Shown here: positions 52,436 to 53,454 of the stretch, piece by piece
Position numbering within the stretch: position 1 is the stretch's first letter
How the letters are laid out: every line of letters starts with the position of its first letter
Sequence record: PQ511150.1
From: Escherichia phage NHEP29
Strand: one strand, 5' to 3'
DNA: 64,000 bases
Program-made: the position numbers and the translations under genes
The notes under the pieces: generated by a model
Seen by the model: the letters and a program-made list of their open reading frames with translations, nothing else
Database searches by the model: none
What the model was told of the DNA's origin: nothing

Positions 52436-53068
52436 TCACAGTACGTTAGTTACAAGGGTAATGATTTCTTTGGACACATTAGGGAAGTCAATGTAAGTAT
52501 ATTTACCACCGATCTTAATCTTAACATCATTTTCAAGAGAAGTAAACAGCTTTGATTCAGTTTCTGACATGTTGTATGCAAAGATTCTAAGAGAACCATT
52601 TCGACGAATTTCGATCTGACGAATACCTAGAACTCGTTTTGCAAATCGAACTTCCAAGTTACTACGGTTTTCACCAATTTCTTTAACTTCAACTTTATCT
52701 TTAATATTTTCAAAAACAAAGTTTGCTAATTCATGCATTTCAGGAGTAACTCCACGTGCTTTTCTAGTGTTACGTTTCTGAAGAAGTTCTGGAGCATTTT
52801 CTTGGGCAAAGAGGTCTGCGGCTTTTTGGATAATATCCATTGCTTCGCCTGTTGCTATAAGTCCATCACCAGATTTTTCGACTAAACCTTTCTTAATCAA
52901 TACACCAATGTTAGAGTTAACAACCGATGCATTGTATTCCGCTTCCAGAGCTTCACGGACATTGGCAGCAGTGGTGAAGTTGTTCTTAATGATATAAACC
53001 ATTATTGCAGCAGTTTTTTCATTCAGAGCGTTTTCAGAAGCTTTGATGATGTAAGTAACTTTAGACAT
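52436..53068 (-). CDS. motA: middle-transcription activator MotA
   Basis: 210 aa; N-terminal region close to T4 MotA as recalled (MSKVTYIIKAS...VNSNIGVLIKKGLVEKSGDGLI). Confidence 0.9.
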   Translation of the reverse strand: MSKVTYIIKASENALNEKTAAIMVYIIKNNFTTAANVREALEAEYNASVVNSNIGVLIKKGLVEKSGDGLIATGEAMDIIQKAADLFAQENAPELLQKRNTRKARGVTPEMHELANFVFENIKDKVEVKEIGENRSNLEVRFAKRVLGIRQIEIRRNGSLRIFAYNMSETESKLFTSLENDVKIKIGGKYTYIDFPNVSKEIITLVTNVL

Positions 53069-53135
53069 TTTATTTCTCCAAATTAGTATTTGTTTTGATA
53101 GGTCTATACTATCATGTTTGAAGCAAAAGTAAACT
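53059..53135 (-). repeat. direct repeat copy A (motA 5' leader plus early promoter cassette)
   Basis: About 77 bp nearly identical to 53377..53454, including the first three codons (MSK), RBS and promoter elements. Confidence 0.85.
53104..53134 (-). promoter_or_regulatory. early promoter for motA (within direct repeat)
   Basis: Minus strand GTTTAC...TAGTAT; part of duplicated cassette. Confidence 0.55.
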
Positions 53136-53171
53136 TTATTTTGGGCTCTTTTTCAAAAGCCCTGGTAAAAT

Positions 53172-53387
53172 TTACAAACTCATTTCTTTAATAAGGCTAA
53201 TAAGTTTTGCCTTTTTAGAACGAAGCTTTTCTAAATGATGTCCATTTGAACCGCGAACCACTAAAGAATTGATTTCAACTTCTAAGAAATTTAATTCTTC
53301 AACAAGTGCTTTACGTGGAGCATTCATACCGGGTTTAACTTTACCGAAACGAGTAGTTGTGTTTTGGGTTAATTTCATTTTAGACAT
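53172..53387 (-). CDS. hypothetical protein (71 aa)
   Basis: Start refined to MSKMKL after RBS GGAGAAA; shares 5' leader and first three codons with motA via a 77-bp direct repeat. Confidence 0.5.
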   Translation of the reverse strand: MSKMKLTQNTTTRFGKVKPGMNAPRKALVEELNFLEVEINSLVVRGSNGHHLEKLRSKKAKLISLIKEMSL

Positions 53388-53454
53388 TTTATTTCTCCAA
53401 ATTAGTATTTGTTTTGATAGGTCTATAATATCATGTTTGAAGCACATGTAAACT
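53377..53454 (-). repeat. direct repeat copy B (leader and promoter cassette of the 71-aa gene)
   Basis: 48 nt identical then 3 mismatches in 27 nt relative to copy A. Confidence 0.85.
53424..53454 (-). promoter_or_regulatory. early promoter for 71-aa gene (within direct repeat)
   Basis: Minus strand GTTTAC + 17 + TATTAT. Confidence 0.55.

Follow-up and report, generated by a model that had tools for sequence, protein, structure and literature searches.

Why would a T4-type phage carry two nearly identical promoters, leaders and gene starts some 320 bp apart, and what do they mean for the small gene between them? The question is raised by a direct repeat beside motA, the gene for the activator of middle transcription, in Escherichia phage NHEP29 (record PQ511150.1), of which one stretch of 64,000 nt, hereafter the window, was analysed. 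The window belongs to a T4-type phage of the genus Mosigvirus (RB69 group), and the 1.2 kb around the repeat are 98.7% identical to phages ST0, AV117 and HX01. One copy of the repeat precedes motA and the other precedes an open reading frame (ORF) of 71 amino acids (aa). We regard it as likely that the two copies are tandem cassettes of the promoter-early stem-loop (PeSL) type bracketing a small immediate-early gene, and that they provide both shared expression with motA and a substrate for recombination.

Two promoter modules in front of two genes

A repeat finder returned a single direct-repeat family, with copies at 53060-53143 and 53379-53462 (84 nt, 93% identity, 319 from start to start). 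The 49-mer at 53060-53108 is found exactly again at 53379-53427 and at no other site in the 64 kb with up to three mismatches, and no 49-nt match arose in any of 100 dinucleotide shuffles. Read on the minus strand, which carries all genes of the locus (gene 52, the 71-aa ORF and motA), 72 of 75 positions from the -35 hexamer to the third codon are equal between the copies, which reproduces the 48/48 plus 24/27 matches counted in a first-pass annotation of the same letters. Two of the three mismatches follow directly on GTTTAC (ATGT versus TTTT) and the third lies in the -10 box (TATTAT versus TAGTAT). The same annotation was right that both genes start with MSK behind the same ribosome-binding site and early promoter: a promoter, GGAG and ATG TCT AAA are present in both copies, with the start codons at 53387 for the 71-aa ORF and at 53068 for motA. 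The features of the locus are as follows.

53379..53462, minus strand: upstream copy of the repeat (P1 module), predicted to drive the 71-aa gene
53453-53448, 53430-53425, 53398-53395 and 53387-53379, minus strand: parts of P1, in this order the -35 box GTTTAC, TGn with the -10 box TATTAT, the Shine-Dalgarno (SD) sequence GGAG, and ATG TCT AAA
53060..53143, minus strand: downstream copy of the repeat (P2 module), predicted to drive motA
53134-53129, 53111-53106, 53079-53076 and 53068-53060, minus strand: parts of P2, in the same order GTTTAC, TGn with TAGTAT, GGAG, and ATG TCT AAA
53172..53387, minus strand: 71-aa early gene, the cassette cargo (PHROG 6200), called from orthologues, annotations and purifying selection
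53143..53162, minus strand: predicted stem-loop GGGCUUUUGAAAAAGAGCCC between the stop of the 71-aa ORF and the -35 box of P2
53475..53494, minus strand: gene 52 terminator stem-loop, GGGAGCUUCGGCUCCC followed by UUUU, just upstream of P1 and annotated as a terminator in phage PhAPEC2
52436..53068, minus strand: motA, activator of middle transcription, 210 aa (Pfam PF09114, 1.1e-39; PF09158, 4.6e-9)
53571..54896, minus strand: gene 52, topoisomerase II medium subunit (PF00521), which bounds the gene 52-motA slot on its left

The coordinates of P2 are those of P1 minus 319 throughout. Each copy consists of the -35 box GTTTAC, a 16-nt spacer ending in TGa and a -10 hexamer, followed by a leader of about 35 nt that is predicted to be unstructured (-1.5 kcal/mol) and then by GGAG, 7 nt and ATG; this -35/TGn/-10 architecture is the one that a review describes for T4 early promoters. 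By sequence match, P1 (TTTACA-16-TATTAT with TG) agrees with the sigma-70 consensus at 10 of 12 positions, and P2 (TTTACT-16-TAGTAT) deviates from TAYWAT at one position, TATTAT being found at P2 in 6 of 7 other genomes that contain the 71-aa gene (filled genomes). Among the 22 promoter-like sites of the window, P1 and P2 are 91% identical over 80 nt, the runner-up pair reaching 71% and the median lying at 34%, so that their likeness goes far past what a shared promoter consensus would give.

A stem-loop lies upstream of each promoter. The gene 52 hairpin GGGAGCUUCGGCUCCC before P1 has a folding energy in context of -15.5 kcal/mol (z = -3.7), and the stem-loop GGGCUUUUGAAAAAGAGCCC, which ends 8 nt before the -35 box of P2, has one of -12.3 kcal/mol (z = -3.3). 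The latter is followed by the A-rich sequence AAAAUAAA with no U tract and was not picked up by a terminator scan; it is kept in all filled loci of Mosigvirus and Dhakavirus. An Rfam scan of 52300-53700 on both strands (E <= 1) gave no match in the leaders or the spacer. Promoter-like matches on the plus strand inside the repeat (TAGACA-16-TAGTAT) were judged to be due to chance, as they score 9/12 and the region has 9 such sites in total versus 10.8 in shuffles.

We propose that each cassette comprises a stem-loop, a T4-type early promoter, a leader, GGAG and a start codon, with the repeat running three codons into the genes. Both genes would then be immediate-early, transcribed by the unmodified host RNA polymerase from near-identical strong sigma-70 promoters and translated from identical initiation regions. 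Because the early promoter and the initiation region, with its RegB-like GGAG motif, are the same, the 71-aa protein would be produced, and its production stopped, in time with that of MotA. RegB together with S1 cuts within the GGAG of an 11-nt site, GGAGRAYARAA, and acts well on the motA mRNA of T4 (Durand et al. 2006, PMC1702504); T4 motA is cited as having an early promoter and a RegB-sensitive translation initiation region (Uzan, Brody, Favre 1990, as cited in PMC3014915). RegB is encoded in the Mosigvirus PhAPEC2. A shared post-transcriptional shut-off of both genes by RegB is plausible from the sequence of the leaders, and co-regulation of the 71-aa gene with motA is likewise plausible.

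Filled and empty loci and the markers within the repeat

In a tblastn search, the 71-aa ORF was found in 93 phage records, 76 Mosigvirus-type ones with 88-100% aa identity and 17 Dhakavirus-type ones with 72-77%, and 154 Mosigvirus records matched the region at 95-99% DNA identity, all these counts including RefSeq/GenBank duplicates. About half of the 154, RB69 among them, are without the 71-aa gene, and in these the region is matched in two pieces that together span 904-908 bp, compared with about 1223 bp when the gene is present. The comparison with relatives that the first-pass annotation had suggested thus revealed a clear presence/absence polymorphism.

Fifteen Mosigvirus loci were read base by base. 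An IMG/VR pattern scan yielded Dhakavirus and T4-type contigs and no Mosigvirus, and the Mosigvirus loci were taken from GenBank records. From the stop of gene 52 to the ATG of motA, 515-520 nt were counted in 7 filled genomes and 198-201 nt in 6 empty ones, a difference of one repeat period (319 bp). In the other two empty genomes, G2285 and pEK20, the distance is 222-225 nt owing to a peptide and a terminator of Dhakavirus type. Both have the gene 52 end, the small peptide and the terminator (GGAACCTTCGGGTTCC) of that type joined to a Mosigvirus-type promoter region, with the mosaic boundary at the terminator/promoter junction.

In the empty genomes, a lone promoter after the gene 52 terminator would drive motA, whereas in the filled genomes the promoter after gene 52 would drive the 71-aa ORF and a second copy, behind its own stem-loop, would drive motA. 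The first-pass claim that the motA promoter was duplicated in front of the ORF therefore needs rewording: promoter, leader, ribosome-binding site and three codons are indeed duplicated, but the upstream copy is not simply a copied motA promoter, since the gene 52-proximal promoter is the one that serves motA in empty genomes.

Both states occur within single species, namely JS09 (ST0 filled, pEK20 empty) and mar005p1 (APCEc01 filled, moha empty), and similarity of the flanks does not group the genomes by state. The left flanks of APCEc01 (filled) and mar008P4 (empty) are 99.7% identical and their promoter haplotypes are equal, so that the two look like a before-and-after pair. Two records with other labels, Shigella phage JK45 (labelled Tequatrovirus) and phiE142 (labelled Carettavirus, a 121-kb record), match Mosigvirus genomes with 98-100% identity at the locus; these may be labelling or assembly oddities of the records.

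Four markers distinguish the promoter copies. Marker 1, after GTTTAC, is of type a (ATGTGC, ACGTGC or ATATGC) or type b (TTTTGC); marker 2 is T or G at position 3 of the -10 box; marker 3, after the -10 box, is GACC or AACC (G or A at +2); and marker 4 is the leader, either O (AAAACAACCAAAT, 2 nt longer) or M (ATACTAATT). The motA-proximal copy has the stem-loop, b and M in 7/7 filled genomes. The gene 52-proximal copy of filled genomes is a-O in ST0, HX01, PhAPEC2 and Mizar, b-O in APCEc01, b-M in PCM001 and a-M in the window, and the single promoter of empty sites shows three haplotypes: a-O in five genomes, a-M in RB69 and pEK20, and b-O in mar008P4. Among the promoters that follow gene 52, a/b and O/M thus occur in every one of their four combinations, and the four markers assort freely. 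Such a full set of combinations of multi-nucleotide markers about 40 nt apart shows that exchange has taken place within the repeat.

The leaders differ between the two copies in most filled genomes, and only the window and PCM001 have the motA-type M leader in both. In a spread sample of 21 full-length Mosigvirus matches, PCM001 alone has the M leader before the ORF, the rest being 93-96% identical with a leader 2 nt longer. This rarity implies that, in the window lineage, the copy before motA recently converted the upstream leader, or that the lineage went through an equivalent unequal exchange with a genome of RB69 type; conversion has thereby lengthened the exact identity to 49 nt. An older conversion tract appears to reach into the coding sequence. 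The 71-aa ORF starts with ATGAATAAG in Dhakavirus (ATG AAT AAG ATG, MNKM) and with ATGTCTAAA in Mosigvirus (ATG TCT AAA ATG, MSKM); the four nucleotide changes exactly reproduce the first three codons of motA. Empty sites in which an O leader is fused to motA would correspond to a crossover in the last 22 nt of the repeat (TTGGAGAAATAAAATGTCTAAA), and RB69-type empty sites to one between the -35 flank and the leader.

We envisage that the recombination system of the phage acts on the 75-84 nt of near-identity. One 319-bp period would be lost together with the gene when the two copies undergo unequal exchange or excision, the reverse reaction would insert a cassette, and gene conversion would keep the copies alike. 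The right homology arm would be the conserved SD-ATG-TCT-AAA of motA and the left arm the promoter core or the initial transcribed sequence, and with arms so conserved, different cargo ORFs have been exchanged at the slot, even between genera. Comparison of the genomes shows the repeat to be a recombination substrate, which would explain presence and absence of the gene, mixed haplotypes and cargo replacement. The first-pass view that the repeat can mediate loss of the intervening gene is borne out by the one period that about half of the Mosigvirus records lack and by the reshuffled markers.

Cargo replacement and competing explanations

The slot holds different genes in different phages. In Dhakavirus VR5 and JS98, an orthologue of the 71-aa ORF lies between a promoter pair with a 41-nt exact repeat, and the same stem-loop precedes the second copy. 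In JS10, an unrelated 75-aa ORF (PHROG 10955) occupies the slot between the same stem-loop/promoter modules. One further Dhakavirus contig has a third ORF in the slot, with the downstream promoter degraded, and another is empty. The JS10-type 75-aa cassette is also found in the T4-type contig L021, flanked on the left by a T4-type motA.1 and terminator and on the right by a T4-type motA, with junctions at CTATCAA (left) and GGAGATTAAAATGTCTAAA (right). A total of 138 records carry the 75-aa ORF at an identity of 95% or more; those sampled from this band include the Dhakavirus-type phage IME281 and many phages of T4-like genome size. Unrelated cargos in the slot, together with a T4-type backbone that carries the 75-aa cassette, indicate that cassettes move between genera at this place. 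The 75-aa cassette of the T4-type contigs L021, L022 and L025 has a degraded upstream module, in which about 42 nt that T4 possesses are missing, comprising the T tract of the T4 terminator, the UP region and the -35 box. This module resembles the 'half PeSLs' of Comeau 2014, and the ORF may be expressed there by read-through from gene 52.

PeSL cassettes are known from RB49/phi1, to which PST/T4 and nt-1/KVP40 were later added (Arbiol, Comeau, Kutateladze, Adamia, Krisch 2010, PMC2839356; Comeau, Arbiol, Krisch 2014, PMC4122927). In PST/T4, the stem-loop lies just upstream of TTTACW-N17-TAYWAT, and an SD and a start codon stand at the 3' end (PMC4122927). The PeSL crossovers mapped so far fall between the -10 box and the ATG, and less than 50 bp of homology suffices for recombination in T4; circular excision products were seen by inverse PCR for RB49/phi1 pairs only (PMC2839356; PMC4122927). 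The present modules share the anatomy (stem-loop, sigma-70-like early promoter, SD and ATG, with P1 fitting TTTACW...TAYWAT) and also the behaviour, in that tandem copies surround small ORFs of unknown function and the indels and replacements between close relatives end within the modules. Their occurrence as a dispersed multi-copy family is matched by a third module in PhAPEC2 and by the 8-10 promoters of Dhakavirus genomes (below), the window itself having two copies. They differ in several respects: the gene 52-motA locus, Mosigvirus and Dhakavirus are unmentioned in Arbiol 2010 and Comeau 2014; the repeat enters the coding sequence by 9 nt, so that the cargo gains the first three motA codons; the right-hand module belongs to the conserved core regulator motA rather than to another ORFan; and the second stem-loop is without a U tract, while the mini-circle evidence belongs to the RB49/phi1 pairs.

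The alternative that survives best reverses the direction: the empty site would be ancestral, and the gene, stem-loop and second promoter would have been inserted through a PeSL mini-circle or a double crossover during co-infection. The structure is symmetric, and one crossover in TTGGAGAAATAAAATGTCTAAA between such a circle and an a-O-motA empty site would give exactly the ST0 arrangement. Moreover, the O leader stands before motA in 6/8 empty loci, the 75-aa cassette in a T4-type backbone indicates that insertions do occur at the slot, and the reaction is held to be reversible by the PeSL authors (PMC2839356; PMC4122927). The age of the gene speaks the other way. Between the window and VR5, the synonymous divergence (dS) is 1.00 for the 71-aa ORF and 1.02 for motA, with ratios of nonsynonymous to synonymous divergence (dN/dS) of 0.27 and 0.24, and the ORF lies at the same position in Dhakavirus, as co-inheritance since before the split of the genera predicts; otherwise, a donor at exactly that divergence has to be postulated. 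The 71-aa ORF is, on these substitution ratios, a real gene under purifying selection, and the match of its divergence to that of motA favours long residence and repeated loss in Mosigvirus over recent capture, although the structure alone does not fix the direction. Hence insertion into an ancestral empty site appears to us possible but rather unlikely. For the first-pass proposal that the ORF was captured as a cassette, this means that the slot does act as a cassette site, as the unrelated ORFs elsewhere indicate, but that the capture was not recent.

A second alternative accepts the deletions and dispenses with recombination proteins: replication slippage or copy-choice between the copies, which would make the repeat a passive mutational hotspot. 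Slippage is a classic source of deletions between short direct repeats, and deletion endpoints alone fit either mechanism. It fails, however, to explain the reshuffling of markers between copies and between genomes, with all four combinations present, or the replacement by unrelated cargo and the transfer across genera, and circular excision products have been shown for other PeSL pairs. We thus consider it improbable.

The likeness of P1 and P2 could further reflect functional convergence, both genes needing the same strong early promoter and initiation region, with no role of the repeat in rearrangement. The promoter core is indeed widespread. In Dhakavirus contigs L007-L047, some 8-10 early promoters of each genome share one and the same 22-nt core, CATGATACTATAGACCTATCAA; this unusually uniform family often has a GC hairpin and a T tract just upstream. 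In the Mosigvirus PhAPEC2 (NC_024794, 53968-54029), another locus holds a third promoter/leader module of type b (GTTTACTTTTGCTTTAAACATGTTATTATAGACCTATCGAAACAAA...TTGGAGAATAAAATG) with 86% identity over 63 nt. It is situated upstream of an ORF of the nrdC.10 region which resembles the ORF beside a PeSL in the Dhakavirus locus L046. This relative and weaker core matches were all that a search of PhAPEC2 for a third full copy of the repeat produced. The P1/P2 pair thus belongs to a dispersed family of promoter modules. In Klebsiella phage Marfa, and in other Klebsiella/Citrobacter T4-like phages, the promoter, leader and start of motA are about 91% conserved over 66 nt and the coding DNA only about 76-78% (about 78% in Marfa), so the regulatory module is more conserved than the gene. 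Convergence nevertheless has little to say on three observations: the 49-nt exact identity takes in a non-consensus leader and three codons; the pair stands at 91% identity against at most 71% for any other promoter pair of the window; and the indel in relatives is exactly one repeat period, with multi-nucleotide markers reassorted. As a full account it is very unlikely.

Even less probable is a dedicated site-specific system, that is, a recombinase or a homing-endonuclease-like activity that moves the cassette by acting on the stem-loop. Arbiol et al. (PMC2839356) speculated about a specific protein binding the PeSL stem-loop, and the stem-loop GGGCT...AGCCC is kept between Mosigvirus and Dhakavirus; yet the only product of the cassette is a predicted helical hairpin of 71 aa that bears no mark of a nuclease or recombinase, and the crossover points vary between genomes, as homology-driven exchange predicts. 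Finally, an assembly or sequencing artefact that collapsed or duplicated the repeat, which the first-pass annotation had named as what might undo its claim and for which just the general risk of assemblers at repeats speaks, can practically be dismissed, as the two-copy arrangement recurs with small lineage differences in about 76 independently sequenced and deposited phages and the one-copy arrangement in a similar number.

Against the preferred reading, PeSL-type cassettes that serve both expression and recombination, several points must be set. For this phage, we infer promoter activity, transcription starts, RegB cleavage, deletion frequency and mini-circles, all of them from sequence. The RegB-like site of both copies, GGAGAAAUAAA, agrees with GGAGRAYARAA at 9/11 positions, deviating at positions 7 and 8. 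The stem-loop after the 71-aa ORF, being without a U tract, may not terminate, so that motA may be read from P1 too. Part of the repeat, CATGATAnTATAGACCTATCAA, is the core common to many Dhakavirus early promoters, and together with the 86% copy of PhAPEC2 this means that part of the similarity is family consensus and not duplication. As to the rearrangements, an indel bounded by direct repeats by itself shows neither the direction (loss or gain) nor the mechanism (recombination or slippage), the polymorphism within species could stem from a few events spread by recombination of the flanks, the database counts contain RefSeq/GenBank duplicates, and the base-by-base reading covers just 15 Mosigvirus loci.

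The cargo, its neighbours and the use of the locus

Neither the 71-aa nor the 75-aa protein gave a significant match in Pfam, and their PHROGs, 6200 and 10955, are both families of unknown function. The 71-aa protein is represented by only 8 clusters among 5.8 billion proteins, all of Mosigvirus/Dhakavirus type. Its AlphaFold model predicts a basic disordered N-terminus followed by a two-helix hairpin (predicted local distance difference test, pLDDT, 76), for which Foldseek found only its own orthologue and generic helical hairpins in BFVD and PDB, so that no function could be assigned.

The right-hand neighbour is clearly identified, as the motA product has the N-terminal activation domain and the C-terminal MotCF DNA-binding domain, with both Pfam scores passing the curated cut-offs. 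A 109-aa ORF in the mechanical ORF list (53172-53501, minus strand) was rejected as a gene: it arises from an in-frame ATG upstream of the promoter, its extra N-terminus crosses the promoter, and annotations and orthologues all start at 53387. On the gene 52 side, a 26-aa hydrophobic peptide ORF with a TTG start (53494-53574, minus strand; MSALALGFLGAIAALVIWLYWLDKHD) overlaps the gene 52 stop, has GGAGG upstream and ends within the terminator stem. Its position is that of T4 motA.1 (49 aa) and of a 34-aa Dhakavirus peptide; it has no PHROG match and is below the length limit of the ORF list. Elsewhere in the window, two further early-promoter-like modules at 20825-21268 (minus strand), with a spacing of 443 bp and 71% identity over 80 nt, stand on either side of a 122-aa ORF (20831-21199) in the 30.6-30.9 region. 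No clean deletion of one period is evident for this pair in a spread sample of Mosigvirus; phage T2 spans about 400 bp less than other Tequatroviruses at the counterpart of this region.

The arrangement at motA has partial parallels in known systems. T4 likewise has an early promoter after the gene 52/motA.1 terminator, and an SD GGAG, an A-rich tract and ATG TCT AAA; however, it has a single copy with a different leader, and the putative RegB/S1 site of the window pair agrees with the consensus at 9 of 11 positions. T-even phages also shuffle internal-protein ORFs and ORFs of the gene 32 region (Repoila et al. 1994, as cited in PMC4122927); there, too, related phages exchange small non-essential early ORFs at conserved regulatory sequences, although at other loci and, as far as the citing paper conveys, with no detail on mechanism. 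Integrons share the fixed slot that accepts alternative promoter-proximal small ORFs, with circular intermediates proposed, whereas the slot described here has no integrase and no attC/attI, the exchange being driven by homology in the promoter and translation initiation region and each cassette bringing its own promoter.

Cassette shuffling through PeSLs is a mechanism already described, and no new mechanism is claimed here. What sets this locus apart is the three-codon extension, the conserved-regulator partner and the use of the same slot across three genera. On a more speculative reading, which we judge improbable, the gene 52-motA junction could be a dedicated slot for exchange across genera, at which conversion by motA rewrites the 5' ends of the cargo onto the motA/RegB programme, the cargos (71-aa, 75-aa and third ORF) being interchangeable accessory modulators of the early-to-middle switch or of host takeover rather than random ORFans. 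The pair directly before motA offers a convenient site for assaying rates of PeSL excision and insertion, and the natural filled and empty variants are a ready isogenic pair for asking what the 71-aa early protein does. For the T4-type phages as a group, the locus is a clean natural example of how small early genes are gained, lost and swapped via promoter/leader modules.

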